Positions 13,142 to 57,444 of a stretch of DNA of 64,000 nucleotides are shown here, piece after piece. The stretch is from an uncultured Planctomycetota bacterium (GTDB taxonomy: Bacteria > Planctomycetota > Planctomycetia > Isosphaerales > Isosphaeraceae). The position numbers and the translations under genes are program-made. Below the pieces are notes generated by a model. That model saw only the letters and a program-made list of their open reading frames with translations. It did not search any database and had not been told where the DNA came from. Within the stretch, counting starts at the first letter, position 1. Each line of letters starts with the position of its first letter. The stretch spans positions 1,280,001 through 1,344,000 of the forward strand of contig CAVTTN010000002.1 in NCBI GenBank assembly GCA_963737655.1, read 5' to 3'.

Positions 13142-15645
13142 TCAGGCATGCCCCTTCTCGACCAGGTCGATCAGCTCTCGGCCGGTCATCCGGTGGGCGG
13201 CGTCGTGGGGGCACGCGTAGACGCAGCTCGGCTCCCCGCCGAGGTCGTGGCAGAGGTCGCAGGCCGTGGCCTTCTGCTGGACCACCGCCATCATCTTCCC
13301 CGGCCGGTTCGGGTCGGGGATGCGCTCGCCGGTGGGGAACGGGTGCATGTTGATGTTGCCATACGGGCAATTCTCGGCGCACTTGCCGCAGCCGATGCAC
13401 CAGTCCTCGATGATGATCTCCAGCGAGTCCCTCCGCCGGATCGACCCCACCGGGCAGCCGACCATGCAGTACGGGTCCAGGCACGACCGGCACGAGCTGG
13501 CCACGAGGAACTTGTCGAACCTCAGCCCCTCGCGGATCAATCGCGTGACGCCGTCGTGGGCGTCGGCGCAGGCCTTGGTGCACTCGTCGCACCTCGTGCA
13601 TTTCTGGAGGTCCAGGACGAGCAGGCTGTTGGCATTCATGAGCCCCTGGCTGAGGAACTCGCCCAGGGGGAGGCTGTCGGCGCGCTCTGGGCCCGGGCGT
13701 TCTCCTCCAGCCTCTTGATCGCCTCGCGGACCAGGGGCTCGCGGACCAGGGGGAAGCGGGCGAGGAGGTCGCGGAAGTCGGCCGCGGTGATCTGGACGAG
13801 GTCCACGTGGTCCAGGGCCGAGCACGTCGCCGTCCTCAGGCCGGGAGGGGCGAGCGCGCGGACCTCGGCAACGTCGCTCATCAGCGCGATCTCGCCGAAG
13901 TAGCCGCCGGGCCCGACGTAGGTGAGGACGTGGTCTCCGCCGGGCCTCTTCTGCGAGACCTTCACGAACCCGGTGCGGACGAGGTAGAACCCGTCCTCCG
14001 AGCGATCCCCCTGGCGGAAGATGATCTCGCCCGGGTCGCGCCTGGCGAGCTTGACCGTCTTCCTCAGGTCGTCCACGAACCGGCCGAACTCCGCCTCGTC
14101 GTCGCGGATCGTCGAGAAGATGCCGACGCTCCTCAGGTGGCTGGAGATCGCCCGCTCCCGGTACTTCTCCTCCAGCTTCGCCCGGAACGCCCGGCTCCTC
14201 TGCATGATGTACAGGACGTTCCTCAGGAGCTCCAGGACGACGGTTTCCTCGGCCGCGCGGACGGTCGCCGAGCGGGGGTAGGAGTTCATGCAGGTCATCT
14301 CGCCGAAGATGTCGCCGGGCCCGAGGGTCGCGGCCGGCCTGGCGTAGGCCAGCGCCACCGGGGCGTCGATCGCGATGAACCCGCGGTCCCCCTCCCCCTC
14401 GCGCGTCTCCTCGTTGCGAGAGACCAGGTCCACCGTCAGCTTCTTCATCAGGCCGAACAGCCCGCGACCCTTCTTGCCCGCCCGGTTGCGGGCGTGACTC
14501 ATCGAGGCATTCAGATAGATATCCACCGATCCCGACTCGATCAGGAACGCCGACGAGCCGAACTCGCCTTCGCGGCAGATGATCTCGCCCTTCTTGAAGG
14601 TCCGGCGGACGATCGAGCTCTCGTTCCACCTCAGGAACGCCGGGGAGGAGCCGCGGAACGCCCGGCGGATGTCGTCGATCGGGTGGCGGATCAGCTCTTC
14701 GGCGCGGATCTTCTGAGGGGGCGGCGAGATGTCCTCCCACGGCTTGGCGACGACCGTGACCTTGTTCGTCAGGGCGCCCGTGGGGCAGGAGATCATGCAT
14801 TCGCCGCACGCCACGCACGACGAGTTGCCCATCGGGTCATCGAGATCGAAGGCGATCTTCGCCTGATAGCCCTTCTTCGCCCGGCCGATGACCTGGTTGT
14901 CGCGGATGTCGTTGCAGCCCCGGACGCAGCGATCGCAGAGGATGCAGGCGTCGTGATCGACGGCGATCACCAGCGAGGAATCGTCCTTGGGCCGGGGGGC
15001 CCGGCGGCTGAACCGGGGCGTCCCGACCTGGAATTTCGCCGCGAGCTCCTCCAGCTCGCAATCGCCGGTCTGCTTCTGCTTGGCGCAGGGGGTGGGGTGG
15101 TCGGCCATCAGCAATTCGGTGACGGTGTTGACGGCCTGGCGGACGGTCTCGGAGGTGGCCATCGTGGCCACTTCCATCGTGTCCTCGACCCGGTGCTGGC
15201 AGGCCGGCAGGAGCTTCCTCTCGGTCTGCATCTTGCCGCGCTTGACCTTCGAGATCTCGACCACGCAGACGCGGCAGACGGCCACCGGGTCCATGTGCTC
15301 GCGGTGGCAGAGGATCGGGATCGGGTTGACCGGGCTGCTGGAGGCGCGGAAGGTGGTCCCGGCGGCGAAGAGGAGGGCGGCGGCGTCGTAGATCGTCGTC
15401 GGCCGGGGGATCACCTTCCCCTCGGCGTCCTTGAGGAACGTCCCCTGGGCGTCGGTGGCGGGGACGGCCTTCTTCACGGTGATCGTCCGGCCGTCGATCT
15501 TGATCGTGACGTCGCGGTCGAGGTCCTCGGCGGTGACCTTGTCCATCCGCAGGAGGCGGCCGTCGAGGTCCCGGGAGAAGAGCCCTTCCTCCTCCTCGCG
15601 ACGGGCCACCGAGGCCGGCAGGGTGCTCATCGTCCCAACGCTCAT
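13142..15645 (-). CDS. NuoG/HoxU-like Fe-S N-terminus + two cNMP-binding domains + 4x[4Fe-4S] ferredoxin domain, with an apparent 1-nt deletion at ~13688
   Basis: ORF 13636..15645 has PILCH..CRVC..LPAC, CILCDRCVRGC, CVACGECMISCP, FGEM..YPRSATV and FGEI..LRTAT. It continues in the frame of 13142..14818 with CTRCDECTKAC, CRSCLDPYCMVGC, CIGCGKCAENC and CDLC..PSCVYAC. ATGA overlap with the upstream gene. Confidence 0.85.
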
Positions 15646-17432
15646 CGCTTCACCTCCAGGGTGCGGAGCGGGTCATCCCCGCCGACGGCCGGGCTCGGGG
15701 CGGGTCGGAACGCGGTGCGGACGTAGCCGGCCATGTCGTCTCGGAAGTTGCGGATCACCGAGCCCAGAGGATTCGCCGCGACCATCCCCAGGCCGCAGAT
15801 CGACGCCATCTCCAGGGCCTTGCGGAGGTCCGCGACCATGTCCTCCACCGGCTCCAGGCCCACCCCGTCGTACCGGCCCCCGAGGAGGTCCGTGCCGATC
15901 TCCACGAGCTTCTGCGAGCCGATCCGGCACGGGACGCACTTGCCGCACGACTCGTTGCGGAAGAACTCGGTGCAGTTCAACGCCTGGTCGGCCATGTCGG
16001 CCGAGTCTCCGTAGACGACCAATCCGCCGCCGAGCATCAGGCCGAAGTCGCGGAACGCCTGGAGGTCCAGGGGCAGGTCGAGGATGTTCAGGAAGGGCTT
16101 GTCGCCGGTCTTGCCCTGGGCCGACCTGGGGAGGTCGGCCAGGGGGATTCGCGTCGGGAGGAAGCCTCCCGAGGGGCCCGACGTCGCCACGGCCTTGAGC
16201 CTCTGGCCGGACCTCATCCCCCCGGCGTATTTGCCGATGAGCTGGCCGAGGGTCGTCCCGTTGGCGACCTCGTACACGCCCGGCCTCGCCACGTCGCCGG
16301 AGATCGAGAAGAACCGGGCCCCCTTGCAGCCGCCCGTGCCCAGGTCGCGATACCAGGCCCCTCCGTGGTGGTAGATCGCGGGGACCCAGGCGAACGTCTC
16401 GACGTTGGAAAGGAGCGTGGGCTTGTCGTACAGGCCGTTGGTCTCCAGCAGGGGCGGCTTGTTCCGGGGCTCGGCGCGCTTGTCCTCCATCGCCTCGATC
16501 AGGGCGCTCTGCTCCCCGCAGATGTAGCCTCCGGGGGAGACGAAGACCTCGATCGGGAACGATCGGCCCGTGCCGAGCAGGTCCTCGCCGCAGACGCCCA
16601 TCCGCTCGGCCCGGCCGATCGCGGCGTTCACGGCCTCGATCTGGGGCTCGTATTCGTGGCGGATGTAGACATAACCGCGCTCGGCCCCGGTGAGCAGCCC
16701 GGCGAGGATCACGCCTTCGAGGACGAGGTGGGGCGTCCTCAGCAATAATTCGCGGTCCTTGAAGGTGCCGGGCTCGCTCTCGTCGCCGTTGACGACGACG
16801 TACTTGCGGTCCCCTCGGGCCTGGCGGACGTCGTGCCACTTCTGGTGGGCCGGGACGCCCGCGCCGCCCATCCCTCGGAGGTCGGAGGCCTTGAGCTGCT
16901 CGACGAGGTTGTCGGCGTCCTTGGTCTCGACGAATTTGCGGGCGGCGGCGTATTCCTCCCGGCCTTCATACGGGTCGATCCGCCATCCGGTGCGGACCGG
17001 CTCGGCGAAGGTGGGGTCGATCCGGGAGAATGGGTCGGAGCGGCCGGTTATCGCGTCCCGGAGCAGGGCCCGGCACTCGGCCAGGGTCTTGGACCGATAG
17101 ACATGATGGCCCACCATCACCGCCGGAGCGGCGTCGCACTGGCCCAGGCACGACACCCCCTTGATCTCGACCGATTCCCCCCCGCCGAGCTCGGCGGCCA
17201 TCTCCTTCAAGGACCGGAGGTAGTCCGGGGCCCCTCGGAGGTGGCAGGCCATGTCCCGGCACACCAGGAACTCGACGTCCGGGGGCGGCTCCATCCGGTA
17301 GTGAGGGAAGCAGCTCGCCACCTCATGGAGCCGATGCAACGGCACGCTCAGCCGCTCCGAGAGCGCCTTGAGCTCCGAGGCGGGCAGGTAGCCGTTCTTC
17401 TTCTGGATCGCGTGGAGTTCTTGTTGGATCAT
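15642..17432 (-). CDS. Fused NuoE/NuoF-like (HoxF-like) FMN/NAD(P)H diaphorase subunit
   Basis: VCRDMACH..SCLGQC [2Fe-2S], LRGMGGAG, NGDESEPGTFKDR, YICGEQSAL and ESCGKCVPCR..SICGLG. Start placed at ATG 17432 because the longer ORF start lies inside a repeat. Confidence 0.9.
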   Translation of the reverse strand: MIQQELHAIQKKNGYLPASELKALSERLSVPLHRLHEVASCFPHYRMEPPPDVEFLVCRDMACHLRGAPDYLRSLKEMAAELGGGESVEIKGVSCLGQCDAAPAVMVGHHVYRSKTLAECRALLRDAITGRSDPFSRIDPTFAEPVRTGWRIDPYEGREEYAAARKFVETKDADNLVEQLKASDLRGMGGAGVPAHQKWHDVRQARGDRKYVVVNGDESEPGTFKDRELLLRTPHLVLEGVILAGLLTGAERGYVYIRHEYEPQIEAVNAAIGRAERMGVCGEDLLGTGRSFPIEVFVSPGGYICGEQSALIEAMEDKRAEPRNKPPLLETNGLYDKPTLLSNVETFAWVPAIYHHGGAWYRDLGTGGCKGARFFSISGDVARPGVYEVANGTTLGQLIGKYAGGMRSGQRLKAVATSGPSGGFLPTRIPLADLPRSAQGKTGDKPFLNILDLPLDLQAFRDFGLMLGGGLVVYGDSADMADQALNCTEFFRNESCGKCVPCRIGSQKLVEIGTDLLGGRYDGVGLEPVEDMVADLRKALEMASICGLGMVAANPLGSVIRNFRDDMAGYVRTAFRPAPSPAVGGDDPLRTLEVKR

Positions 17433-17436
17433 CTTT

Positions 17437-20112: not shown

Positions 20113-20321
20113 CGCCGGAAACGTCCCCCTCGGGGCGCCCTCGCCCCGTCATCGGGCCGTCGCGATCGGCAGGCCCCGCAGAACTCGCCCCCCGATCGTA
20201 GCGAAATTCCGGCGGAAGCCAACGGTTTACCCCCGGTTCCTTGATTTTCGGCCCGGAGGGGGGCATCTTCAGAGATATCGAACCGGCCGATGACGGCCGA
20301 GTCCCCGGGGAGGGTCCGGTC

Positions 20322-21749
20322 ATGAGGCGAGTCTCAACCGTCGGCGGCGCCCTGACCGGCGCCTCGGCCCTGGCCACGATCTGGCTGGTCTTCGGGCCGC
20401 GTCCCACCCCCGCGAGCCCTCCCCCGGTCGGACCGACGAACGCCCCGGTCGCCGCGGGCCCGAAATTCGTCCCCCGAGGGGCCGGCTCGTGCGCCGCCGC
20501 CGCCTGCCACGGCTCGGCCACGTCGCTACCGTCATTCTCGAACGTCTTCCGCAACGAGCACACTACCTGGATCACCCGAGACCCCCACTCGCGGGCCTAC
20601 GAAGTCCTCAGCGATGAGCGGTCGCTGTCGATCGCCCGGAACCTGGGCAACGGCCGACCGGGCGGCCGCGTGATTGCGCCGTCCGAAGACGCCCGCTGCC
20701 TGGCCTGCCACTCCACCCCTTCGGCGACGACCGCCGCCTTGGGCGACGCCGCGGACGTGATCCGTCGCGACGGCGTCGGGTGCGAGTCTTGCCACGGGCC
20801 CTCCAGCGGATGGCTCAGCGAGCACACCCGGGCCGATTTCGTGGGACTCTCCGGCGAGGTCAAGCACGACCAGTTCGGCCTGAACAACCTGAAAAACCCG
20901 ATCGTTCGCGCGAAGACCTGCACCGGCTGCCACGTCGGCGCCCCGGAGGGAGACGGCCTCCCCCTGCGAGACGTCAATCACGACCTGATCGCCGCCGGCC
21001 ACCCCCGGCTCGACTGGGAGTTCTCGGCCTACGTGGCGAACTACCCCAAGCACTGGACCACCGCGAACGACCCGCCGGACTGGGACGCCCGGCTCTGGAA
21101 GATCGGCCAGGTTGAGACCCTCCGCGCCGCGACCGACCTCCTCAACGCCCGGGCCGAGGCCGCCGAGGCCCACAAGGCCCCCTGGCCCGAATTCGCCGAA
21201 TATTCCTGCTACAGCTGCCACTTCGCCCTGAAGGACAAGCCGTTCAAGGTCGGCCTCGACCCGCAGACGCCCCCCGGGATGCCCGCCTGGGGCTCGTGGA
21301 CGACTCCTTTGATCCCGCCTCTCGCGAAGCTCTCCGCCGGACCCGCCCCATCGGCCGACGAGCGGCTGAATGACCTCCGAACCGTCATGAAGACCTTCGG
21401 CGCGGAGCCCAAGATCGCCGCCGAGAAGGCCCGATCGACCCGCGACGCCCTCTCGGCCTGGCTGGCGACCCTCCCGAACGCCCCGCTGACCGCCCCCGAG
21501 ATCAAGACGCTGATCGCCGCCCTCGACGCCAGGGACGCTGCCGGACGACTCGCGCTGGTCCACCGATGGGACTCGGCCGCGCAGGTCTATCTCGGCCTCG
21601 CCGCCCTGAATGTGTCGCTCCAGAAGCTCGACCCGAACGCCGTCGATCCCAAGCTCCGGGCCGAGCTGAAGGAACTCCTCGGAAAGCTCAGCTTCGCCAA
21701 GGGGTTCGACAGCCCCCGGGATTTCAACCCGTCGGCGCCGAACCGTTAG
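20322..21749 (+). CDS. Pentaheme cytochrome c (c554-like N-terminal domain)
   Basis: N-terminal hydrophobic segment, CAAAACH, CLACH, GVGCESCHGP, CTGCH, CYSCH and HDLIAAGHP. Confidence 0.85.
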   Translation: MRRVSTVGGALTGASALATIWLVFGPRPTPASPPPVGPTNAPVAAGPKFVPRGAGSCAAAACHGSATSLPSFSNVFRNEHTTWITRDPHSRAYEVLSDERSLSIARNLGNGRPGGRVIAPSEDARCLACHSTPSATTAALGDAADVIRRDGVGCESCHGPSSGWLSEHTRADFVGLSGEVKHDQFGLNNLKNPIVRAKTCTGCHVGAPEGDGLPLRDVNHDLIAAGHPRLDWEFSAYVANYPKHWTTANDPPDWDARLWKIGQVETLRAATDLLNARAEAAEAHKAPWPEFAEYSCYSCHFALKDKPFKVGLDPQTPPGMPAWGSWTTPLIPPLAKLSAGPAPSADERLNDLRTVMKTFGAEPKIAAEKARSTRDALSAWLATLPNAPLTAPEIKTLIAALDARDAAGRLALVHRWDSAAQVYLGLAALNVSLQKLDPNAVDPKLRAELKELLGKLSFAKGFDSPRDFNPSAPNR

Positions 21750-21920: not shown

Positions 21921-22062
21921 TCGGGGGCGGAAGCGAATTCAACGGTCGATTGGTGATGGGCCTGCTTGATGGATGAGCAATCCGACCGGACTCGGACCGA
22001 ACGGCGGCGCACGGTACACTGGGGGAAATCGCCGGACATCGTCACGAAGGGCAGTCGCACCG

Positions 22063-22647
22063 ATGGCCACCGTCGAACTGCTTCCGAACGAGGTCGGGCG
22101 CGTCGTCGAATCGTCGTTCCCGACCGAGGATTCGCTCTATGAGATCGTCGATGGCCTGCGGGTGGCGATCGCCCCGATGAGCGCTTATGCGGGCCTGGTC
22201 GCCTCGCGATTGGTCACCGAGCTCAACATCTCCGCCCGACCGGGGCGATTCGGCCAGGCCGCGGTGGAGACGCTTTTCCGCCTCCCCCTCCATGAGGACC
22301 GCTCCAGGAATCGGCGGCCGGATGTTGCCTTCGTGTCGGACGATCGTTGGCCCGTGGGGACGCCCATCCCCCTCCGGGACAACGCCTGGGACGTGGTCCC
22401 CGATCTCGCCGTCGAGGTCGTCAGCCCTCACGACCTGCTTGAGGAGGTCCTGGATCAGGTCGATGAGTACTTCCGGGCCGGGGTCCGGCTCGTGTGGGTC
22501 GTCCTGCCCGTCCATCGCCGGGTTTACGTCTACGAATCCCCTTCGAAACTTCACGTTCGGACCGACGCCGACGCCCTCGACGCGGAGGGCGTGCTCCCCG
22601 GGTTCCGCCTGCCCCTGGCGGGGCTGTTCGACCCTCCTGCCGCGTGA
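22063..22647 (+). CDS. Uma2 family (DUF820) putative endonuclease
   Basis: YEIVDG, RRPDVAFV, PDLAVEVVSP, YFRAGVRLVWVV and LPGFRLPL motifs. Confidence 0.9.
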   Translation: MATVELLPNEVGRVVESSFPTEDSLYEIVDGLRVAIAPMSAYAGLVASRLVTELNISARPGRFGQAAVETLFRLPLHEDRSRNRRPDVAFVSDDRWPVGTPIPLRDNAWDVVPDLAVEVVSPHDLLEEVLDQVDEYFRAGVRLVWVVLPVHRRVYVYESPSKLHVRTDADALDAEGVLPGFRLPLAGLFDPPAA

Positions 22648-22749
22648 TCCCCTCGGCCGGTACGGTCTTGGACGCCCCGGCGGTTCCCCTGTATCCTGGG
22701 GGCCGAGCGTCTCGCGACCGATCCGGGCCAGAACGAGGGGCAGCATGTC

Positions 22750-24483
22750 ATGGGCATCCCGACGATGATCGAAGCCTTGGGCGAGGACGCCTCGAAGGCC
22801 GTCCAGGCCGCCCTGGACGACTGGCAGGCCGGCAGCAAGGTCAAGAGGCTCTGGGACGGTGACGCTTCGCTCTGGTCGGGCGCCGACGAAGGCCAGTGGC
22901 TCGGCTGGCTCCACGTGATCGACGAGCCCGGCCGCACCGAGATGGTCAAGAACCTGCAGGCGATCGCCCAGGACGTCCATTCGCTCGGCGTGACCGACGC
23001 CCTGGTCATGGGGATGGGCGGGTCGAGCCTCTGCCCCGAAGTGTTGAAGATGACGTTCGGCCACATTCAGGGCTGGCCCAATCTCCACGTCCTGGATTCG
23101 ACCGTGCCGGCCCAGGTCGCCTCGTTCCGCGACTCGCTCGACCTGGCGAAGACGGTTTGCATCGTCTCGTCGAAGTCCGGCAGCACCACCGAGCCGAACG
23201 TCTTCCGCCAGTACTTCCAGGAGCAGGTCGGCGCCGCGATCGGAGCGGAGAAGGCCGGTTCCAGGTTCCTCGCCGTGACCGACCCGGGCACGAAGATGCA
23301 GGCCGTGGCCGAGCAGAACGAGTTCCGCACGATCGCCTTCGGCGTGCCGTCGATCGGCGGGCGGTTCTCGGCCCTGTCGAATTTCGGGATGGTCCCGGCG
23401 GCCGTGATGGGCCTCGACGTGGCGGATTTCCTCCGCCGGGCCGGCGAGATGGTCGTCGCCTGCGGCCCGAACACCTCGGCCGAGTCGAACCCGGGCGTCC
23501 GCCTCGGCGCGATCCTCGGCGTGATGGCCCGCGACTTCCACAAGGACAAGGTCACCCTGATCACCTCGCCTCCGATCGGAGACCTCGGCGCCTGGCTCGA
23601 ACAACTGCTCGCCGAATCGACCGGAAAGCAGGGCAAGGGCGTGGTCCCCGTCGACGGCGAGGCGATCGGGCCGCCTTCGGCGTACGGGAACGACCGCCTG
23701 TTCGTGTACTTGCGGCTCGAAGCCGCGCCCGATGCCTTGCAAGATGAGGCGGTCTCCGCCCTGGAGAATGCCGGCCATCCGGTGGTTCGCGTGCCGATCG
23801 AGGACCCGATGGACCTGGGCGCCGAGTTCTTCCGCTGGGAGTTCGCCACGGCGGTGGCCGGTTCGATCCTGGGGATCAACGCGTTCAATCAGCCGGACGT
23901 CGAGGCGAGCAAGATCAAGACCCGCGAGCTCTCGGCCGAGTACGCGAAGACGGGCAAGGTTCCCGACGAGGTCCCGGTCTCCGAGGGCGGCGGATTCAAG
24001 CTGTTCACCGACGAGAAGAACGCCGACGCCCTCGCCCGGGCCGCCGCCACGCCCGAGCCGGCCGATTACCTCCGGGCCCACCTCGCCCGGTTCGAGGTCG
24101 GCGATTATTTCGCCCTCACGGCCTATGTCCAGATGGACGCCGAGAACAAGGCGATCCTCGAAGAGATCCGCCACCTCGTGAGGGACGGGCGGCGAGTCGC
24201 GACGACGCTCGGGTTCGGGCCGAGGTTCCTGCACTCGACGGGCCAGCTCCACAAGGGGGGGCCGAACTCGGGCGTGTTCCTGCAAATCACCTCGGACGAC
24301 GCCTTCGACCTGGCGATCCCGGGCGAGGTCTACAGCTTCGGCCTGTTGAAGAGGTTCCAGGCGCAGGGGGATTTCGCCGTCCTGGTCGAGAGAAACCGCC
24401 GGGCCCTGCGCGTCCACCTCGGTCCCGACGTGCCGGAAGGGCTGCGGAAGCTCAAGGAGACCATCCGCGAAGCTCTCGGATGA
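22750..24483 (+). CDS. pgi: Glucose-6-phosphate isomerase (type matching the PGI half of Tal-Pgi fusions)
   Basis: WLGWL, GMGGSSL, SSKSGSTTE, IGGRFSALS, EQLLAESTGK, NQPDVEASK and GPRFLHSTGQLHKGG motifs. Confidence 0.9.
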   Translation: MGIPTMIEALGEDASKAVQAALDDWQAGSKVKRLWDGDASLWSGADEGQWLGWLHVIDEPGRTEMVKNLQAIAQDVHSLGVTDALVMGMGGSSLCPEVLKMTFGHIQGWPNLHVLDSTVPAQVASFRDSLDLAKTVCIVSSKSGSTTEPNVFRQYFQEQVGAAIGAEKAGSRFLAVTDPGTKMQAVAEQNEFRTIAFGVPSIGGRFSALSNFGMVPAAVMGLDVADFLRRAGEMVVACGPNTSAESNPGVRLGAILGVMARDFHKDKVTLITSPPIGDLGAWLEQLLAESTGKQGKGVVPVDGEAIGPPSAYGNDRLFVYLRLEAAPDALQDEAVSALENAGHPVVRVPIEDPMDLGAEFFRWEFATAVAGSILGINAFNQPDVEASKIKTRELSAEYAKTGKVPDEVPVSEGGGFKLFTDEKNADALARAAATPEPADYLRAHLARFEVGDYFALTAYVQMDAENKAILEEIRHLVRDGRRVATTLGFGPRFLHSTGQLHKGGPNSGVFLQITSDDAFDLAIPGEVYSFGLLKRFQAQGDFAVLVERNRRALRVHLGPDVPEGLRKLKETIREALG

Positions 24484-25019: not shown

Positions 25020-25039
25020 CCTTTCCCGGACGATCCACG

Positions 25040-27120
<2,081 letters not shown>

Positions 27121-27124
<4 letters not shown>

Positions 27125-27528: not shown

Positions 27529-27559
27529 ACCCGAACCCGATCGAGAAACGGCACGACGC

Positions 27560-28231: not shown

Positions 28232-28255
28232 TCTCCCGTCCAGAAGGAGGATGTC

Positions 28256-28906: not shown

Positions 28907-28935
28907 TCGGGATCAAAATCTCAGGAGATGCTGTC

Positions 28936-29961: not shown

Positions 29962-29966
29962 GAGAT

Positions 29967-30150: not shown

Positions 30151-30185
30151 GTCCGATTCCCCATCCACCAGTCGGAGCCCAGAGA

Positions 30186-32950: not shown

Positions 32951-33050
32951 GGACCGACCCCGCCCCGGCCTCGCCTCGTTGACGCCCCTCCATCGCTTGT
33001 TTAACATCACCCCGGGATGCGGCGACGATCCTTCGGCGGAGGCGGGCCTC

Positions 33051-46854: not shown

Positions 46855-46920
46855 TCCCCCGAAACGTCGCGATTCCCGGGGCCGTCGGGACGGCCCCGGC
46901 ATATTCATAAGAACTTCGAA

Positions 46921-46943
46921 TATAATAGTGCGCATTTGCGCAC
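46921..46943 (+). promoter_or_regulatory. Putative -10 box followed by a palindromic operator
   Basis: TATAAT at 46921-46926 then GTGCGCA-TT-TGCGCAC at 46928-46943, in an AT-rich gap 150 bp upstream of a gene. Confidence 0.4.
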
Positions 46944-47092
46944 GCATAATTCATCGTATCCTGTTCTTGCCTTGATTGGACGATGCGATGACGCGTATGA
47001 TCGTCGCGAATCCGGCCGGTCGGCTGTCGTCGCCCGGGAATTCCGGCGGATTGGTTTCCTGCCCCCGTGACCCATTGAGGAGCTTTCTCTCG

Positions 47093-47797
47093 ATGAAGAT
47101 GCTCTCCCGAATCGTCGCTGCCGTCGTCGCCGCGCTGGCCCTGGCCTCGGGCGCACAAGCCGACTACCTTGAGCTGTTGCCCCCGACTTCGACGGTCGCC
47201 GCCGGCGGCACGGAAACCTTGACCCTCGACCTGGTCGTCACCTCGCCGACGATCAAGCTCGCCGGGTACCAGGCCATCATCGCCTTCGACAAGAACGTGG
47301 TCACGATGTCCAACGTGATCCTCGGGTCGGACCTCACGGCCGCCAACGCCGCCGGCCAGTCGTTCACGGCGCCGAACCCGTCCTCGAACTACCTGAACAA
47401 CGGCGTCCTCTACATCCTCTCCACCAACCTGAACACCGCCGGGTTCACGATGACCAACGGCGGCGGGAGCCACGTCTACGAGCTGGCCAAGTTCACGGTG
47501 ACCGTGGGCTCGACGTTCCCGACCGGTTCCTCGACGCTGCTGGACCTTGCCGCCACGGCGAAGGTGGGCGCCACGAACCTGACCACGAAGGTGGCCGTCC
47601 GGCCCGCGGGCGGCGGCACGGCGACGACCCTGTCGCTCAGCCCGGCCCCGCTCAACGGGATGGACGCCCGGGACGCGATCATCAACGCCCCGAACTCCGT
47701 GCCCGAGCCGGCCTCGATGGCGCTGCTGGCCATCGGAGGCGCCGGCGCCCTGATCGCCCGCCGTCGCCGCAACAAGAAGGCCGAGGCCGTCGCCTGA
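47093..47797 (+). CDS. PEP-CTERM protein with a cohesin-like domain
   Basis: Signal ending AQA, LAGYQAIIAFDKNVV..ELAKFTVTV cohesin-like pattern, and VPEPASMALLAIGGAGALIARRRR. GAGGAG upstream. Confidence 0.8.
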   Translation: MKMLSRIVAAVVAALALASGAQADYLELLPPTSTVAAGGTETLTLDLVVTSPTIKLAGYQAIIAFDKNVVTMSNVILGSDLTAANAAGQSFTAPNPSSNYLNNGVLYILSTNLNTAGFTMTNGGGSHVYELAKFTVTVGSTFPTGSSTLLDLAATAKVGATNLTTKVAVRPAGGGTATTLSLSPAPLNGMDARDAIINAPNSVPEPASMALLAIGGAGALIARRRRNKKAEAVA

Positions 47798-48070
47798 GGA
47801 TCGGCCCGCGATGAGGATTCCACCCGGGGGGCGCGCGGGCCGAAGCCGACCGCGCGCCCCTCGCTGAGTTTGGTCCGTCGGCGCGCCCGAGTCCGAGGGA
47901 TGAGGCCGCGCCTTCCCCCCGCCCGCCTGGCCCCGCGTCTCGAATTCGTCGCCTCGCGATGCCCGGCCGGGCCCGCCTCGGCCCGAGGGACCGGGCCATC
48001 ACGTCGCCCCGATCTCGGGGCGACTCCAGGGATGGTGCCCCCCTTCCGAATCCTCACCAGGGAGCCTGCG

Positions 48071-51000
48071 ATGACGTTCTCCGCCCCGATCCGCCGGGCC
48101 CGATCGGCCCGGCCCCGCCGCCTCCTCGCCGCCGAGGCCCTGGAGGCCCGCCAGCTCCTCTCCGTCGCCGACTTCCGGATCAACGAGATCGCCCTGAACA
48201 CGCCCACGAGCAAGGGCAAGTACGTCGAGATCTCCGGCGGGGCCAGCGAATCGCTCAGCAACGCCACGTACAAGTACGAGCTCGCCGTCTTCGCCGGGGC
48301 GGCCTCGAGCAACGCCTCCAACGGCACGGCGACCATCGGCCAGGCGACCTACGTCCTGGACCTCAGCACCACCAGCAACGGCGGGACCGGCAAGCTCGGC
48401 TCCAACGGCCTCCTGCTGGTCACCCAGAGCGGCCCGCCCAGCACGTTCCCGATCGATGCGAGCACGCCGAACATCAAGGACCCGCTCTTCACCACCGGCA
48501 GCGGCGGGATCACCACCGCCAACTCGCCCACGTTCGAGCTACTCCAGGTCCCGCTCAACGGCGGGTTGACGGTCAACCAGAACTACGCCAGCGGGACCAG
48601 CCTGAGCCTGCCGGCCGGGACGACCGTCCTGGACACCCTCTCGTTCATCAACGGGACGCCCGACGGCAAGACCCAGGTGAACTTCGGCGCCTGGCTGAAC
48701 CTGGACAACCAGGCCGCCAACCTGGGCCTGACCTCGCTCCAGGCCCAGCTCGCCTCGCGGACCCCGGGCAACTCGGCGTTGACCCACCAGAGCGACGACT
48801 CGACCGACTCGCAGTTCCCGTTCTACTACGGCGACGCCCCCTCCGGGGCCTCGACCTCCGACGTGTACGTCCCCTATGACCCGACGAAGTCGCAGAACCT
48901 GCCGACCACCGGCGGTGCCCTGACCCCGGGCGGGGTCAACGGCGCCATCTTCGTCTACTCGCCGGCCTCGTACACGACCCAGGAAGTCTTCGGCCAGACC
49001 GTCCAGCAGCCGATCACCGTGACCGAGACGAACACCTCGACGGCCTACACGGTCAACTACAACACGATCGACTCGGGCAAGGGCGCCGGGACGGCCGTCG
49101 CCGGGACGAACTACACGAGCATCCCCAGCACCGGGCTGACCTTCCCCGCCGGCTCCCACGGCGCGACCAGCGGCACCCCGGCCACGAAGACGTTCAACCT
49201 GGCGGTCCTCGACGACGGCAAGGTGGACCCCTCGCTGACGGTCAAGCTCGCGCTGACGGCCCCGGCCTCCTCCTTCATCGACACGACCGGCACGACGGCC
49301 ACCGTCACGATCCTCGACGGCGACGCCCCGAGCTTCACCTTCGCCCAGGCCGACTTCGACGCCACCGGCACCGGCGGCTCGGACGTGATCACGATCAAGA
49401 GGGGCGGGATCACCACCACCGCCGCCTCGGTGACCGTCTCCACCAGCGACGGGACGACCTACGACACCAAGCGCACCAGCAACGCCCTGGCCGGCCGCGA
49501 CTACACGGCGACCAGCACCGTCGTGAATTTCGCCGCCGGGCAGACCACCGCCACCGTCCCGGTCACCGTCTTCAACAACCCGGTCAATGACCGCAACCGC
49601 CGGTTCAACCTCGCGCTGAGCAACCCGACCAACGGCGCGGTCCTGGGCACCCTGAACACGGCCACCGGGACGGTCCTGAACACGGTCGTCCCCCCGGTGA
49701 TCGTGGTGGACGCCTTCGACGACAACCCGCCCTCGACCGACAACTATTATCAGTACATCCAGGTCGCCGGGACGCCCAATGCCACGCTCTACCACGTCTC
49801 GGTGGCGATCATCGACGGCCGCAACACGGCCGCGAACGCCCCCGGCAACGTCCTCTATTACAAGGACCTCAGCGGCTACACCCTCGGCTCCAACGGCCTC
49901 CTGATCCTCAAGTCGATCCTGCCCTCGTGGCAGACGGCCCCGGCGACCACGGTGGTGACCGACTCGATTTTCGACACGGCCGGCCTCCCGCACTCGTCGT
50001 CGTCCTACGTGGTGATCTCCGACCCCCAGCCCGGCGCGGTCTCCAACGGGGCGAGCCTCGACCCGACGATGTCCGGGACGCTGAACCTCGGCCTCGGCGG
50101 CCAGTTCCTCGACGGCGCCGGCTACACCAACGGCACGCCCAGCTACTTCGTCTACGGGACCGACATCTCCGTCGCCGGCCAGGCGGCCGTCGGCGGCTCG
50201 CCGAACTCGGCCACCCGGATCAACGGCGACGAGACCCCGTTCTCGGCCACGAACTGGGTCTCGGGCACGCTCGATAACCTCGACAACCACGCCTCGATCG
50301 CCTTCAACCCCGACCCGAGCGTCTCGGCCCTGGGCGGGATCTCGGGCAACCACCCGATCCCCTCCGGAGTGGTCCTGACCCCCGGCTACCCGACCGTCTC
50401 GGCCACGACCTCCTACAGCGGCAACGTGATCCACCCCCGGGAGTCGCTGCTGACCGTCCAGTCGATCACGCCGATCCCCACCGGCTTCATCGCCCAGTTC
50501 AACGGCGACTTCGACCCCACCAACGTCGCCCTCTACAACACCGCCACCCCGAGCGTGACCCTGACCGACTCCCTCGGCGACGTCTACGCCGGGTCTCTGG
50601 TCATCACCAACGCCAACCCGAGCCAGTCGGCGGCCAGCGGGACCACGATCCTGGCGAAGGACTACGTGACCTTCAAGGTCACCTCGGCCGACCTGCCCGA
50701 CGGCATCCTGCCGGCCGGCACCTACACCCTGACCATCGACGGCAGCGACGCCAACGCCTTCCTGAGCACCACCGGGCAGGAGCTCGACGGCGACTTCAAC
50801 GGCACCCCCGGCGGCGACTTCGTCACCTCGTTCGTCGAGCCCACCCTCACCCTGTTCAACCCCACGTCCTCGGCGCCCGGCGTGGTCGTGTCCATCCCCG
50901 ACTTCGTCGCCGGCAACGGCCAGAACGTCAACGTCCCGGGCAACACCACCACCGGCATCCCCATCGTCCTGACCAACACCGGGAACTCGCCGATCACCGG

Positions 51001-52278
51001 GATCTCCAACGTCACCTTCTATGTCGATTTCGACGGCGCCCTGCTGAACGTCACCAACGGGACGCTCGCTCCGGGCATCACCGGCACCTTCACCTACGTC
51101 CCGCCCTCCAGCGCCAACGGCGGCTACCTCGACTTGCAGATGACCTTGACCGGCGGCTCGCTGACGATCCCGGCCAACGGCTCGGTGGTCTTCGGCTACC
51201 TCACGGCGGACGTCCCGGGAGGCGCGATCTACGGGACCAAGGAAGTCATCCAGATCAACCGGATCGTCATCGGCACCAGCACGACGACCCTCCCCTCGAC
51301 CGATAGCGACGCCCTCCACCTCGTGGCCTTCCCCGGCGACATCAACGGCGACGGCCAGGTCGATGTCTTCGACGTCCTCGCCGAGAACGACCTCGCCAAC
51401 GGCGACGGAGCCACCGCCTACAACAACGCCGACCCCAACCTCGTCGCCGACGTCACCGCTGACTCCACCGTCGACATCTTCGACGTCCTGGCCATCAACG
51501 ACTTCGCCAACGGCAACCCCTCCGACACCATCCCCCCCATCAACGACTCCCCCAACTTCAACGCCAGCGGAACCCCCCAGGACCCCATCCTCTGGGTCCC
51601 CGCCAACCTCAACGTCCACCCCGGCGGCTCGCTGGGCGTCCCCGTCGACTTCGCCCAGACCGACAGGGCCGCCTTCGCCCTCTCCAGCTTCTCGCTGGTC
51701 GTCGGCTACGACCCGGCCGCCTTCGCCGTCAACTCCGTGACCGCCGGCTCGCTCGACCGCGGCTTCGCCCTGAGCTACCGCGTCGACGCCGCCGACGGAC
51801 TGATCTTCATCTCGGGCGCCTCGCTCCCCGGAGTCGCCCTGACCCCCGGGACCCTCGGCAGCCTCGCCGAAATCAACCTGACCGCCCGGCCGGGCGCCGC
51901 CCCGGGAGGCTCGGCGATCAACCTGATGGCCTCGGCCTGGGCCGGCAACCAGACGCTCGTCACCTCGCTCAACGGCGGCAACCTGCTGCTGAACCCGGCG
52001 CCGACCAACGGCGTCGACCCGGTCGACGGCGTGGTCACGATCGGCTCGGCCGCATCGACGACGGCGTCGTCGCCGCTTCAGGCCGCGCTGGCGGCGATCG
52101 ACTCGGCGCTGGCGACCTCCGGCGGGTCGATCGCCGGGGCTCGGCCCTGGCCGACTCGCTCCTGGCCGAGGTGTCGGCCGACGTCGCCCTGCTGGCCCCT
52201 CCGATCGGCTCGGGAGACGTGACGATCCCGTCGCCGGCCGCCTCGTCGAAGCCCCGGGCCAGGGTCGTTTCGGCCTGA
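48071..52278 (+). CDS. Paralog of 42541..46854, with an apparent 1-nt deletion at ~52139
   Basis: AEALEARQLLS and the same domain order. It has G4 where the paralog has G5 (ccgggggctcggcc). Restoring the G gives GSALADSLLA and a stop at 52278. Confidence 0.8.
51331..52167 (+). repeat. Near-identical ~840-bp repeat, copy B
   Basis: Matches 45915-46755. Confidence 0.9.
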
Positions 52279-52310
52279 TCCCTGGCCTGGCGAATCCGTG
52301 AAACCTCGGC

Positions 52311-52344: not shown

Positions 52345-52361
52345 CCCATTTCCCCCGGCTC

Positions 52362-54344: not shown

Positions 54345-54647
54345 CCGAGGGGCCTCCTGGTCCCTTGAACTGGGGGGATCGGATTCGCGGATCGTCTTCG
54401 CCTCCGCGTCCTTGCCTCTGATCGGAATCCATGTGACCCATCTTCAGGAGTTATGCCGGATTTTCCGGTCCCACCTCCTGACCCTTTCGCGAGGGATGAT
54501 CCGAACCGCACGATCCCGCCGATCTCGCGGCCCCGGCCGGAATTCCGGCGAGATCGTCGCAAGTCGCCGGACCGTCTCGCCGAACACTAGGACGACGACC
54601 TCGGGCCGAGGATGGGCCCGGCCGCCCCCCAAGGAGGGACCCCGATC

Positions 54648-56793
54648 GTGGACCGATCGCGAACAAGATCCCGGGTCGGCCGCCGACCGATCGGCCCGGC
54701 CCCGTCCGTGGAAGACCTGGAAGCCCGGGCCCTGATGGCCGCGGACCCCGCCTCGGCCATCCCTCCCGTGCTCACCCAGTCCGACGTCGACACCCTCTTG
54801 CAGAGGGCCGCCCGGGCCACCGCCTCCGACGACGCCATCGTCGCCGTCGTCGATCGCGCCGGCAATATCCTGGGCGTCCGCGTCGAGGGCAACGTCTCTC
54901 CCGCCATCACCGGCAACACCCAGAATCTCGTCTTCTCGATCGACGGCGCCGTGGCCGAGGCCCGCACCGGCGCGTTCTTCGCCAGCAACCAGGCGCCGCT
55001 GACCTCCCGGACGATCCAGGACATCGCCCAGTCCACGATCACCCAGCAGGAGGTCGATTCCAACCCGGACATCTCCGACCCCAACTCCACCGCCCGGGGC
55101 CCGGCTTCGTCGCGCCGATCGGCCTGAAGGCCCACTTCCCCCCGGGCGTCCAGTACACCCCCCAGGTGGACCTCTTCGAGATCGAGGGGACCAACCGCGA
55201 CAGCATCATCAACCCCGGCCCCAACCACGTCCGCCAGGACGTCGTCCAGAACGGCCAGGTCGTCCCCGCCCCGGGCTCCGACGACGTCCTGATGCCCAGC
55301 CGGTTCAACGTCCCGACCCAGTACATCCCGGCCGGTCAAGGTATCAATGCTCCCGAATCGTATGGATTCGTCTCGGGGATGCTGCCCTCGGCGCAGTCCC
55401 GGGGCATCGGCACCCTGCCCGGCGGGATACCGCTGTTCAAGACCGTGACCGACCCGGCCACCGGCAAGCCCGTGACGGCCGAGGTCGGCGGGATCGGCGT
55501 GTTCTTCCCGGGGACGACCGGGTTCGCCTCCGCGGAGAACTCCAAGCTCAACGAGCACCCGTTCCGCGACCCGACCAAGCCCGACCGCTCCCGAGAGGCC
55601 GAGTACGTCGCCTTCGTGGCCGCCGGAGGGAGCTCCGGCGGGGGGATCTCGTTCACCGGCAAGCGAGGGGCCAGCCTCGGCCTCCCCGCCTTCACCGACG
55701 GCTCCTTCGACCTGCCTTCGGGACGGATCGACCTGGTCGGGATCACCCTGAACGTCTTCGGGGCCCACGGCCGCCAGGGGGTCAAGAACATGATCGACGC
55801 CGGGGCCGGGCTCGGCCTGGGCGACACCCTGAGCGGCACGGATGAGCCGATCGCCATCGACCAATCGGCCGTCCCCGCCTCGGCCGAGAAGGCCACCAAC
55901 TCCGGGACCCTCGGCACCGGCCAGGACGTCCCGAGCGGCTGGCTCGTGACCCCCCACGACGCCCAGGACGGCTCCGGGCTGACCGCCGCCGACGTCAACT
56001 CGATCATCGATCGCGGGATCGCCGAGGCCAACCAGATCCGCGCCGCCATCCGCCTGCCCCTGGACAGCACCGCCAAGATGGTCTTCAGCGTGACCGACAA
56101 GAGCGGCAACATCCTGGGCCTCTACCGGATGAACGACGCCACCGTGTTCTCGATCGACGTCGCCGTGGCCAAGGCCCGGAACGTGACCTACTACGCCGAC
56201 CCGGCCCAGCTCCAACCTCAAGACATGATCAGCAACTCGAACGTCCCGCCGGGCACCGCGTTCACCAATCGCGGCTTCCGCTACCTGGCCGAGCCGAGGT
56301 ATCCCGAAGGGATCGACGGCAACCCGCCGGGCCCGTTCTCGATCCTCAACGAGGACACGATCGGCATCACCGGGTCGCCGCTGCCGGCCTCGTCGTTCCA
56401 GACCGTCCAGGGGTTCGACGCCTTCAACCCGCAGACCAACTTCCACCAGCCCTGGAACCTGAACCAGAACGGGATCGTCTTCTTCCCCGGCAGCTCCCCC
56501 CTGTACAAGGACACGGGCTCGGGCAAGAAGGTGCTCGTCGGCGGCCTCGGCGTCTCGGGAGACGGCGTGGACCAGGACGACGACGTCACGTTCGAGGCCC
56601 TGACCGGCTTCAGCCCGACCGGGGCGGTCCGGAGGTCCGACCAGGTCTTCGTCCGGGCGCGCGGGTCCCCTACATCAAGTTCAACCGCCAGCCTCACGAG
56701 CCGTTCAACCAGCCCGGACAGCCCGAGAAGCCGCCGGGAGGCTCGAAAAACATCCTCCCCACGAAGCTGCCGAAGCCGAATCAGACCTCATGA
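54648..56793 (+). CDS. Exported protein with two GlcG/HbpS-like heme-binding domains, with apparent 1-nt deletions at ~55101 and ~56657
   Basis: VEDLEARALMA motif. Domain 1 has IVAVVDRAG..ARTGAFF..PGGIPLFK..GGIGV and domain 2 has FSVTDKSG..AVAKARN..FPGSSPLYK..GGLGVSG. ORFs 54612..55127 and 55166..56995 join. The corrected end reads VPYIKFNR...TGA 56793. Confidence 0.78.
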
Positions 56794-56816
56794 GCCGCCC
56801 CGCCCTCGAATCGACC

Positions 56817-56924
56817 CGGGTGGCATGCCCACGTCTTCGTGGGCATGTCTTCATCCGGTCTGGCTTGTTCATCCGGCATGGGTGAACCGAAGACATGCCC
56901 ACGTCTTCGTGGGCATGCCACCCG
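56817..56924. repeat. Inverted doublet of palindromic units (REP-like, second family)
   Basis: cgggtggcatgcccacgtcttcgtgggcatgtcttc at 56817-56852 and gaagacatgcccacgtcttcgtgggcatgccacccg at 56889-56924. Confidence 0.8.
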
Positions 56925-56991
56925 ACGGGGCAAGGCAAGACGGACCGATCGGCCGATCCCTCCCCCTCAATCTCCATAAAAAGGCATCGCC

Positions 56992-57444
56992 ATGAATCGA
57001 TATTTCCAGAGGACGGCCCTCCCGGCCCTCCTCCTCTTGGCGACGGCCGCCCCGTCGCCGGCCGGGATCTTCTTCCCCCACAACGACTACCACCCCACGC
57101 CCGAGCCCGGCAAGCCCCGGCATTTCTGCCACACCCAGGCCCGCGCCGGCTTCCCGCAGACCCTCCGCAACCACCTGGAGCCGACCAACGCCGGAGACTC
57201 GATCGGCTACTACGTCGGCGGGGGCGGAGGCGGCCACGCCGCCGGCCCCAGGTGCCGCGAGGAAGGCACCTTTGGATGGGACTACCTCGGCGCCTGCTAC
57301 CCCCGCCGAGTGGCCCTGGGCTGGAACCAGGGGAGACGCTACCAGGGCGGGACCGGATCGTACCGGACCGACGAGCCGTTCCCCGTCCCCAACGTCTTCA
57401 CCCTCGACCTCCTCGGCGGCCTCCACCGCCGGGGCGAGGAATGA
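56992..57444 (+). CDS. Small secreted Gly/Tyr-rich hypothetical protein
   Basis: Signal peptide LPALLLLATAAPSPA, then GYYVGGG, GTFGWDY and RYQGGTGSYRTD. AAAGG upstream. Confidence 0.7.
   Translation: MNRYFQRTALPALLLLATAAPSPAGIFFPHNDYHPTPEPGKPRHFCHTQARAGFPQTLRNHLEPTNAGDSIGYYVGGGGGGHAAGPRCREEGTFGWDYLGACYPRRVALGWNQGRRYQGGTGSYRTDEPFPVPNVFTLDLLGGLHRRGEE

Follow-up and report, generated by a model that had tools for sequence, protein, structure and literature searches.

We analysed a 64,000-nucleotide stretch of DNA (the window) from an uncultured planctomycete of the family Isosphaeraceae (NCBI GenBank assembly GCA_963737655.1, contig CAVTTN010000002.1, positions 1,280,001 to 1,344,000 of the forward strand), in which three blocks of genes encode the candidate parts of an electron-export system that would lead from NAD(P)H to multiheme cytochromes c and respond to cyclic nucleotides (cNMP). 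Genes were called by third-position GC content, most long open reading frames (ORFs) being spurious at the window's 69% GC, and the called genes were scanned against Pfam and NCBIfam. All nine genes listed in a preliminary description of this DNA were found by these gene calls and family matches (Table 1). The minus-strand operon comprises a membrane protein with two His pairs, a decaheme cytochrome, a NuoE-NuoF fusion (NuoEF) and an Fe-S/cNMP protein with its ferredoxin domain, and a pentaheme gene diverges from it. Motif counts and LVIVD repeats identified the second pentaheme and the ten-heme LVIVD cytochrome, and an AlphaFold2 (AF2) model together with an HbpS-like Pfam match identified a beta-barrel gene divergent from that of a two-stretch GlcG/HbpS-like protein. 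The heme c motifs, previously put at about 30, amount to 30, of which 28 are CxxCH and two are CX4CH. The absence of a Mo/W, NiFe or FeFe catalytic subunit and of a Nuo membrane arm was also borne out: the molybdopterin, NiFe, FeFe, Nuo membrane-arm and NuoBCDI families gave no match to any window ORF scanned. In the window the blocks lie apart, with spacers of 13.6 kb and 10.2 kb made up mainly of a 12.5-kb pentose-phosphate cluster and a 10-kb insert with two Calx-beta giants and a PEP-CTERM protein.

Table 1. Genes and features of the window, with the parts of the candidate electron-export system listed before their neighbours.
Feature	Position	Strand	Remarks
Ferredoxin domain, 165 aa	13142-13639	-	16 Cys in four groups of four; up to four [4Fe-4S]
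cNMP/Fe-S protein, 669 aa	13636-15645	-	NuoG-N-terminal-like Fe-S domains ([2Fe-2S] + 2x[4Fe-4S]), then two cNMP-binding domains
NuoE-NuoF fusion, 605 aa	15642-17459	-	putative NAD(P)H-oxidising flavin mononucleotide (FMN)/Fe-S input module
Decaheme cytochrome c, 527 aa	17523-19106	-	10 CxxCH; N-terminal membrane helix
Membrane protein, 325 aa	19135-20112	-	candidate di-heme cytochrome b; five transmembrane helices, cytoplasmic insert of about 150 aa
Pentaheme cytochrome 1	20241-21749	+	4 CxxCH + 1 CX4CH; divergent from operon
Metallo-beta-lactamase-fold hydrolase	35346-36230	+	Lactamase_B_2 61 bits
Pentaheme cytochrome 2, c554-like	36306-37835	+	5 CxxCH
LVIVD cytochrome, about 1390 aa	37977-42141	-	10 heme motifs (9 CxxCH + 1 CX4CH); C-terminal LVIVD beta-propeller
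Outer-membrane beta-barrel, 660 aa	52362-54344	-	AF2 model; no family match
HbpS/GlcG-like protein, probably secreted	54612-56995	+	two domains (Pfam)
Small secreted protein, 150 aa	56992-57444	+	no Pfam/NCBIfam family match
Uma2, PGI, transketolase, RpiA, Uma2, 6PGD, G6PD, OpcA, DUF1501	21973-34442	+	intervening genes (Pfam); Uma2 at 21973-22647 and 28256-28906
Two Calx-beta giants and PEP-CTERM protein	42385-52222		between barrel and LVIVD cytochrome
Isoamylase/GlgX	10933-13056		immediately downstream of the minus-strand operon
bpX3 and bpX1 domain matches	58941-63847	-	MoxR-vWA-beta-propeller ternary system
Secreted 1981-aa protein	36-5981		RTX repeats, PKD domains, dockerin domain

To place these blocks in their genomic context, we compared 41 related genomes (designated by G-codes, the window's own genome being G000), which are not independent samples. 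The blocks co-occur, as the preliminary description had presupposed, and in relatives they are adjacent. In G004, G039, G029 and the acidobacterial loci they adjoin without the spacers seen in the window, and the pentose-phosphate spacer is absent from between the blocks in G004, G039, G028 and G029. G004 carries a contiguous series of ferredoxin/cNMP protein, NuoEF, decaheme, membrane protein, pentaheme, metallo-beta-lactamase (MBL)-fold protein, pentaheme, LVIVD cytochrome and HbpS-like protein, and the whole set lies within about 25 kb in G039 and G029. The typical acidobacterial order is HbpS-like protein, then, after other genes, pentaheme, NuoEF, cNMP/Fe-S protein, membrane protein, decaheme, LVIVD cytochrome and barrel. 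One and the same group of 13 among the 41 relatives has both the barrel and the LVIVD cytochrome, and the other 28 have neither; these 13 are all ten genomes with the NuoG-like cNMP protein together with G010, G024 and G029, which hold variants of the inner half. The membrane protein was detected in both G010 and G024, and three non-carriers tested for it gave no match. The shared pattern covers three families of one class plus a second phylum. Because the blocks are adjacent in relatives and share one phyletic pattern, we conclude from gene order and distribution that the three blocks form one system.

The system is not confined to this panel. When one genome per species was searched with the cNMP protein, at least 589 stretches matched it; the best 80 of these, all from other genomes, comprise 65 loci labelled as Acidobacteriota, 13 as Planctomycetota and two otherwise. 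Within 10 kb on either side of the cNMP gene (tblastn), the inner components were found in most of these 80 loci, the ferredoxin domain in 78, NuoEF in 76, the membrane protein in 72 and the decaheme in 69; the ten-heme part of the LVIVD cytochrome was found in 34, the barrel in 34, the LVIVD part in 32 and the HbpS-like gene in 28. At least 4518 protein clusters are related to the cNMP/Fe-S protein, under generic database names such as 'CRP-like cAMP-binding protein/Fe-S-cluster-containing hydrogenase component 2' or 'hypothetical'.

The cytoplasmic end of the set resembles the NADH-input module of complex I. NuoEF exceeds the Pfam cut-offs for Complex1_51K (PF01512, 137.3 bits), 2Fe-2S_thioredx (PF01257, 79.7) and NADH_4Fe-4S (PF10589, 70.8), so that the thioredoxin-like [2Fe-2S] domain of NuoE and the FMN-binding and [4Fe-4S] domains of NuoF are all present. 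Against the NCBIfam NuoF model the fusion scored 362 bits, the equivalog cut-off being 558. The adjoining cNMP protein matched Pfam cNMP_binding (PF00027) at 121 bits against a cut-off of 27.5, along with Fer4_Nqo3, NADH-G_4Fe-4S_3 and Fer2_4. Its NCBIfam matches to HoxU, NuoG and FeFe-A6 cover the N-terminal part only, NuoG being matched at about 17-211 of 606 positions. The set falls outside complex I as a whole, which has a full NuoG with a molybdopterin-like C-terminal domain, the connecting subunits NuoBCDI and a membrane arm. The ferredoxin domain belongs to the Fer4 families in Pfam, and its best NCBIfam match, HydN, reached 56.8 bits against an equivalog cut-off of 260; by sequence it shares the HydN/FdnH fold type and is not a HydN equivalog.

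Both cNMP domains retain the candidate ligand residues. The phosphate-binding cassette motif, known from work on CAP and PKA, reads Gly-Glu ... Arg-[ST]-Ala. In domain 1 the corresponding residues G448, E449, R458 and A460 occur in 79 of 79 sequences, and in domain 2 they are nearly invariant (G584 in 78/79, E585 in 78/79, R604 in 77/79 and A606 in 78/79), so that score and cassette residues together mark each as a cNMP-binding domain. In every homolog the two domains separate the NADH-side clusters from the membrane-side ferredoxin domain. Of the 80 loci, 11 contain class III cyclase genes, which in seven cases immediately follow the gene for the decaheme. Control by cyclic AMP or cyclic GMP (cAMP/cGMP), as first proposed from the letters alone, is consistent with the near-invariant phosphate-binding residues and with these recurrent neighbouring cyclases. 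Each cassette also holds a Cys, C452 in domain 1 (79/79) and C608 in domain 2 (76/79); such a residue is uncommon in cNMP domains and might respond to redox state or touch a cluster.

The input module varies among the relatives. At locus L118 of G029 (G029:C1:5076001-5092000), a divergent NDH-2-like flavoprotein with a C-terminal cNMP domain takes the place of NuoEF and the NuoG-like part. This fusion (L118 5594-7372) and a GAF-domain class III cyclase (7506-9407) are neighbours there, beside the operon for cNMP-ferredoxin, cytochrome b and decaheme. The inner set of G024 is reduced to the cNMP-ferredoxin protein, the membrane protein, the decaheme and pentahemes. These comparisons indicate an invariant core of cNMP-ferredoxin, putative cytochrome b, decaheme and pentaheme with an exchangeable input module, one that is predicted to oxidise NAD(P)H wherever it is recognisable.

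The membrane protein was examined as the candidate link across the inner membrane. Its homologs are 34-71% identical, and five His residues (H85, H99, H297, H303 and H317) are invariant in all 52 of them. In an AF2 model built from 52 sequences (pLDDT 87.9), five helices span the membrane and an insert lies on the cytoplasmic side; H85 and H99 lie on helix 3 (model 78-100) and H303 and H317 on helix 5 (267-323), the residues of each pair 14 positions apart. The positive-inside rule would put His85 and His303 close to the cytoplasmic face of the membrane, with His99 and His317 close to the periplasmic one. In the model, this layout of two His pairs is the classic arrangement for two stacked hemes b, and the spacing is near the 13 or so residues typical of the ferric-reductase and di-heme cytochrome b superfamily. 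When the 52 homologs were scanned singly at E<=1, sub-threshold matches appeared to DUF4405 (PF14358) in 30, Ferric_reduct (PF01794) in 12 and Ni_hydr_CYTB (PF01292) in 10, with best E values of 0.0024, 0.0011 and 1.4e-5, respectively; the G029 ortholog reached 24.8 bits for Ferric_reduct, the cut-off being 28. As a lead only, one feature neighbour in the ESM Atlas is auto-named 'ferric reductase like'. We treat the protein as a candidate divergent di-heme cytochrome b.

The decaheme cytochrome is the predicted periplasmic partner of this protein. All ten of its heme motifs are invariant in 49 homologs of 29-53% identity, and its profile matches chains of Hmc, ActA, MtrA and NrfH, the Hmc 16-heme cytochrome at E 4.8e-9. 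A structure prediction of the membrane protein with the decaheme, part of a check that the preliminary description had suggested, yielded an interface and passed its controls: with two hemes included, the interface score ipSAE was 0.67, 0.67 and 0.65, versus 0.40 for the best control. The calibration mark for this score was reached by 116 of 157 solved complexes and by 2 of 215 mismatched pairs, and this calibration is only rough here, as custom alignments and two riding hemes were used. The runs share at least 81% of contacts, with partner pLDDT of at least 73. In the predicted complex, the membrane helix of the decaheme packs on helix 5 of the membrane protein, and the region of its first heme motif contacts loops 36-49 and 105-109 and the C-terminus of the membrane protein; the contacted loops are those that the positive-inside topology puts in the periplasm. 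The model supports binding between the membrane protein and the decaheme.

Beyond the decaheme, 65 of the 80 loci have a paralog or ortholog of pentaheme 1 no more than 10 kb from the cNMP gene. Pentaheme 2 matched Cytochrome_C554 at 45 bits and the cytochrome c554 of the PDB at E 2e-6. The MBL-fold protein encoded beside it had been named a cNMP phosphodiesterase, an identification that we could not establish. Its PDEase_II match (PF02112, 30.6 bits, cut-off 23.7) covers only profile positions 81-146, 66 of 340, and its Lactamase_B_2 score is higher; the match to NF041851 reached 38.8 bits against a cut-off of 400. The gene was detected in G002, G004 and G008 among the relatives and in 2 of the 80 loci, a distribution that indicates it is not a conserved member of the set.

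The outer components comprise the LVIVD cytochrome, the barrel and the HbpS-like protein. Ten heme motifs are present in 20 of 20 acidobacterial orthologs of the LVIVD cytochrome. The protein does not belong to the MtrC/OmcA type, which is marked by a lipobox Cys and the MtrC domain architecture; the only trace is a faint Mtrc-MtrF_II-IV match in one ortholog (15.9 bits, cut-off 30). A sequence search against solved structures returned nothing at E<=0.1. Feature neighbours in the ESM Atlas suggest, as a lead only, that the LVIVD family may perhaps extend to Verrucomicrobiota and Pseudomonadota. In the barrel protein, a signal peptide and a disordered, Pro-rich N-terminal region come before a conserved segment at about 128-180, 18 long strands and a C-terminal Phe; the strands were counted in the AF2 model, whose barrel part has pLDDT mostly of 80-93. 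MtrB forms a 26-strand barrel around a periplasmic decaheme. With about 18 strands versus that 26-strand sheath, the protein is not an MtrB-type porin. In G002, G008, G024, G029 and Acidobacteriota, the barrel gene lies directly upstream of the LVIVD cytochrome gene on the same strand.

The HbpS-like domain (PF03928) was matched in two stretches at 51.3 bits, and orthologs reached 74.9 and 61.8 bits. A weak Planctomycete extracellular motif in the window copy and RTX repeats in the G039 copy suggest that the protein is probably secreted. The last 100 or so codons of its gene lack a coding signature, third-position GC dropping after about 56600. The small secreted protein encoded next to it is kept beside the HbpS-like gene in Planctomycetia only (tblastn: G002, G004, G008 and G024).

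In this assembly, one-base frame changes interrupt three genes of the set, one in each, although all three are single ORFs in relatives. The break between the cNMP protein and the ferredoxin domain lies near 13640-13690, and the two form one ORF in relatives and in 73 of 78 homologs; a separate ferredoxin gene at 13142-13639 was rejected on the evidence of that single ORF, despite the ATGA start/stop overlap. In the frame plot, the heme part and the LVIVD part of the LVIVD cytochrome lie in different frames with no stop at the junction, where one extra base is placed near 39385; all five relatives examined at this junction have a single ORF. A 171-aa ORF and the HbpS-like ORF are separated by a break near 55060-55110 and are joined in G008 and G039. 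None of the public sequencing runs contains the stretch (best share 0.07).

Coding-phase switches on one strand, with an upstream frame that continues without a stop, were then sought across the whole genome by a rough procedure that catches only one of the window's three shifts and is likely to include false positives. In G000 it returned 1098 junctions, with an upstream run-on above 150 nt in 165, above 300 nt in 112 and above 600 nt in 59, and the frequency of run-on junctions is about one per 34-50 kb of coding DNA. About five background genes outside the cluster, a sample too small to be informative, were compared with relatives, and all were intact. Decay specific to this cluster was rejected, frameshift-like junctions being about as frequent elsewhere in the genome. 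Because such junctions are common across the genome, the three breaks are probably indel errors of this three-contig assembly, their simplest source, with real pseudogenes as the alternative. The run-on junctions of G000 suggest many indel errors or pseudogenes genome-wide, and the same-genus genome G002 also has split alignments in housekeeping genes such as G6PD and OpcA.

Taken together, these results lead us to favour, by a modest degree, one multi-part electron-export system running from NAD(P)H to multiheme cytochromes. Its inner half, passing electrons from NAD(P)H through NuoEF, Fe-S clusters and cytochrome b to the decaheme and pentahemes, is likely, its module of NAD(P)H input, cNMP domains, putative cytochrome b and decaheme having good support in silico. 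In the scheme that we infer, with its bound cofactors, its direction of flow, its gating, its acceptor and its crossing of the outer membrane, NAD(P)H would be oxidised at the FMN of the NuoE-NuoF fusion, and the electrons would pass to the Fe-S clusters of the NuoG-like protein, whose cNMP domains lie between the N-terminal clusters and the four-cluster ferredoxin domain. The latter would dock on the cytoplasmic face of the five-helix membrane protein, which would hold two bis-His hemes b, one near each face. From the outer heme b, electrons would reach the membrane-anchored periplasmic decaheme and then the pentahemes, and no quinone step would be needed. Flow outward from NAD(P)H (about -320 mV) would be downhill and along the membrane potential, inward flow opposing both, and it would regenerate NAD(P)+ at the expense of the membrane potential, as in NADPH oxidases (NOX).

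We consider it fairly probable that this wire is switched when its two sensor domains bind cAMP or cGMP. Such binding could act as a switch because the sensor domains sit within the electron path, and tight control would be sensible because an open wire would drain NAD(P)H and dissipate the membrane potential. A bolder form of the proposal, which we offer only as a tentative one, is that the second messenger directly opens and closes intramolecular Fe-S electron transfer within milliseconds and without transcription, in a quinone-independent NOX-like wire that serves as a major anoxic electron dump of Acidobacteriota and Planctomycetota. As for the outer half, the chances that the ten-heme propeller cytochrome, the barrel and the HbpS-like protein reach an extracellular acceptor fall a little short of even; candidate acceptors would be Fe(III) and humic or particulate organic matter. 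The single chain to the cell surface drawn in the preliminary description therefore stands in part: its course from NAD(P)H through heme b to the periplasmic cytochromes agrees with the domains, the His pairs, the topology and the complex model, whereas its surface end sits poorly with an AlgE-like barrel and a cytochrome that has no lipobox.

Oxidative pentose-phosphate genes offer a possible source of the donor. Genes for G6PD, 6PGD, transketolase and RpiA lie inside or beside the set in Planctomycetia (G000, G002, G008, L032 and L049), and G6PD lies within 10 kb in 7 of the 80 loci, beside the barrel gene and in acidobacterial loci as well; transketolase does so in 3 of 80. Neighbours of this pathway were also seen at L071 and L045. 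These genes are not parts of the conduit, yet they recur in two phyla and could supply NADPH; their position hints that NADPH from the oxidative pentose-phosphate pathway is a donor.

Several observations weigh against the proposed scheme. At the input, no NuoEF was found in cis in G024 and G010, although both retain the cNMP-ferredoxin protein, the membrane protein and the decaheme, and because of this NAD(P)H need not be the sole donor. The NuoG His-ligated cluster motif also seems incomplete in the cNMP protein, which has only His183, Cys187 and Cys196. The membrane protein of the window has no Pfam match above cut-off and none at E<=0.1, nor any significant match to a solved cytochrome b: a Foldseek search of its model against the PDB gave nothing at E<=0.001, a VIA-align wide search returned generic helical hairpins only (Z<=9.2), and a PDB profile search found nothing meaningful. 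If the three frameshifts are real, the system may be inactive in this genome.

At the outer end, the best Foldseek matches of the barrel are AlgE chains (E 1.3e-14, TM-score 0.66), MtrB being absent from the 50 matches listed, and the 18 strands of the model probably leave too little room for a multiheme domain inside the barrel. The LVIVD cytochrome begins with a plain signal peptide or anchor and has no lipobox Cys. It is 53-67% identical across two phyla, far above the decaheme or the membrane protein, a degree of conservation that is unusual for a conduit protein and would fit an enzyme with a defined substrate.

These outer features would suit an alternative in which the inner half works as proposed, the propeller cytochrome is a periplasmic oxidoreductase for a soluble substrate and the barrel is a substrate porin or product exit, so that no electrons cross the outer membrane. 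The many invariant polar residues of the cytochrome point the same way, as does the position of the barrel gene directly upstream of the cytochrome gene, which is frequent for substrate porins. The propeller, however, has no invariant His, Cys or Met of the kind that marks a metal or cofactor site, there is no CxxCK or other catalytic heme motif, and no solved enzyme is a sequence relative. In addition, the secreted HbpS-like protein with its RTX or Planctomycete extracellular motifs travels with the system and points outside the cell. We regard a periplasmic enzyme as unlikely, though deserving of serious attention, and place the surface reading of the propeller cytochrome slightly ahead of it, mainly because of this secreted partner.

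An assimilatory role is improbable. The set could encode a regulated ferric or heme reductase for iron acquisition, similar to the yeast ferric reductases (FRE), with the HbpS-like protein as an extracellular heme or iron binder; the ferric-reductase-like features of the membrane protein, the annotation of HbpS-like domains as heme binding or degrading, and a second-messenger control suited to an on-demand function are all in keeping with this. About 30 hemes and about 10 Fe-S clusters per unit would nevertheless be a costly investment for iron uptake, no TonB receptor, siderophore or iron-transporter gene occurs among the cluster genes scanned, and the HbpS-like gene is found within 10 kb in only 28 of the 80 loci.

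Reverse flow, in which an extracellular or periplasmic donor such as Fe(II) or reduced humics would feed electrons through the cytochromes to reduce NAD(P)+ inside, seems very improbable. NuoEF-type modules are reversible in hydrogenases and formate dehydrogenases, and inward operation is known for some porin-cytochrome systems; electrons entering by way of a two-heme membrane protein would nonetheless have to move against the membrane potential and, with most donors, against the redox gradient to -320 mV, and the cluster holds no proton- or ion-coupling subunit. There is still less to commend the idea that NuoEF and the NuoG-like protein form the diaphorase of a hydrogenase or formate dehydrogenase encoded elsewhere, with the cytochromes as unrelated neighbours. 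The N-terminal part does match HoxU, NuoG and FeFe-hydrogenase A6, and other NuoG-like genes exist elsewhere in G000, but no catalytic subunit is linked in the window or in the Pfam-annotated loci L071, L118 and L120, the gene order of NuoEF, cNMP/Fe-S protein, membrane protein and decaheme is kept in two phyla despite rearrangements, and the phyletic pattern is that of the cytochromes. That the three blocks are unrelated and lie near each other by chance, as their spacers in the window might suggest, is hardly tenable given their adjacency in G004, G039, G029 and Acidobacteriota and their one shared phyletic pattern.

The remaining genes of the region were also surveyed. Two genes of the Uma2 family, encoding putative endonucleases, lie within the pentose-phosphate cluster. 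The Calx-beta giants (1489 and 1450 aa) are paralogs that flank the PEP-CTERM protein; over their full length they share 54% identity, and in the final 300 or so residues they are almost the same. A GH63/MGH1-like glycoside hydrolase of about 896 aa (L071:3914-6604) adjoins the system in 24 of the 80 loci and at L020 of G008. Together with the GlgX gene of the window, this hydrolase may indicate a link to the catabolism of storage carbohydrates or compatible solutes. The bpX genes are seemingly unrelated to the conduit, and the RTX, PKD and dockerin protein lies at the opposite end of the window.

Acidobacteriota and Planctomycetota are among the most abundant bacteria of soil and peat, and how they handle electrons when oxygen is lost is an open question. 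If the proposed system operates as outlined, it would constitute a new entry into extracellular or periplasmic respiration that bypasses the quinone pool, and to our knowledge the first case of cyclic-nucleotide sensor domains built into an Fe-S electron-transfer chain. Electron flow would then be subject to direct allosteric gating, on top of the transcriptional control already known for cAMP-CRP, and the system would represent a major unrecognised outlet for reducing power in nominally aerobic heterotrophs under anoxia, in hundreds of species. Tautonia sociabilis GM2012 (locus L032) is a cultured carrier of the inner half.

To relate the system to those already described, we searched the literature on LVIVD and multiheme proteins, cNMP and NuoF, and porin-cytochrome systems, and on Planctomycetes, Acidobacteriota and Acidiferrales, and found no description of this architecture; it is a widespread multi-gene system that is uncharacterised so far. 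It is not a member of complex I, and its barrel and outer cytochrome are not members of the MtrB porins or the MtrC-type cytochromes. In peat Acidobacteriota and Verrucomicrobiota, porin-multiheme clusters named 'EET1-EET4' are described as conserved and transcribed in Terriglobia, EET1 being termed 'porin-scaffold-cytochrome' (bioRxiv 10.64898/2026.05.27.727921). Compared by description only, EET1 may correspond to the barrel and the LVIVD cytochrome. The accessible part of that text does not mention NADH, cyclic or propeller, and the inner half of NAD(P)H module, cNMP domains and cytochrome b is not described in it.

Four known systems share features with the set. The first is the MtrCAB and Pcc conduits of Shewanella and Geobacter, which it resembles in having a barrel gene next to a multiheme gene, a periplasmic decaheme with pentahemes and a weak MtrA/DmsE match of the decaheme. 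It differs from them in its AlgE-like barrel of about 18 strands, in the lack of a lipoprotein outer cytochrome, in the fusion of the outer cytochrome to a beta-propeller, and in an inner entry that would be linked to NAD(P)H and not, as with CymA, ImcH and CbcL, to quinol. The second is formate dehydrogenase-N, in which an FdnH-type four-cluster ferredoxin docks on a di-heme cytochrome b. A similar docking is proposed here, as for FdnH-FdnI and HydN, but the topology would be inverted, with the ferredoxin in the cytoplasm, and there is no molybdopterin subunit and no evident quinone site.

The third comparison is with Hmc and Tmc of sulfate reducers, in which the electron path across the membrane is made up of a multiheme cytochrome c in the periplasm, a cytochrome b in the membrane and an Fe-S protein in the cytoplasm. 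The three-part layout is the same, and the decaheme profile matches the Hmc 16-heme cytochrome. The cytoplasmic partner, however, would be an NAD(P)H dehydrogenase module with cNMP domains in place of an HdrD-like protein, the cytochrome b is unrelated in sequence, and the hosts are Planctomycetia and Acidobacteriota.

The fourth comparison is with the NOX and FRE enzymes. As in these, a pyridine nucleotide would be oxidised inside the cell, electrons would cross on two stacked bis-His hemes b held by His pairs on helices 3 and 5, and the acceptor would lie outside. The flow would likewise be electrogenic and call for tight regulation; NADPH-producing genes lie nearby, and the weak Ferric_reduct matches are of this kind. 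In contrast to NOX and FRE, the membrane protein has five helices instead of six and no fused FAD/NADPH-binding domain, input would come through the FMN and Fe-S clusters of NuoEF and about eight or more Fe-S clusters, and the acceptor would be a decaheme cytochrome c in place of O2 or Fe(III). By analogy, the nearest counterparts of the proposed system would thus be NOX and the ferric reductases in function, and Hmc and Tmc in layout.

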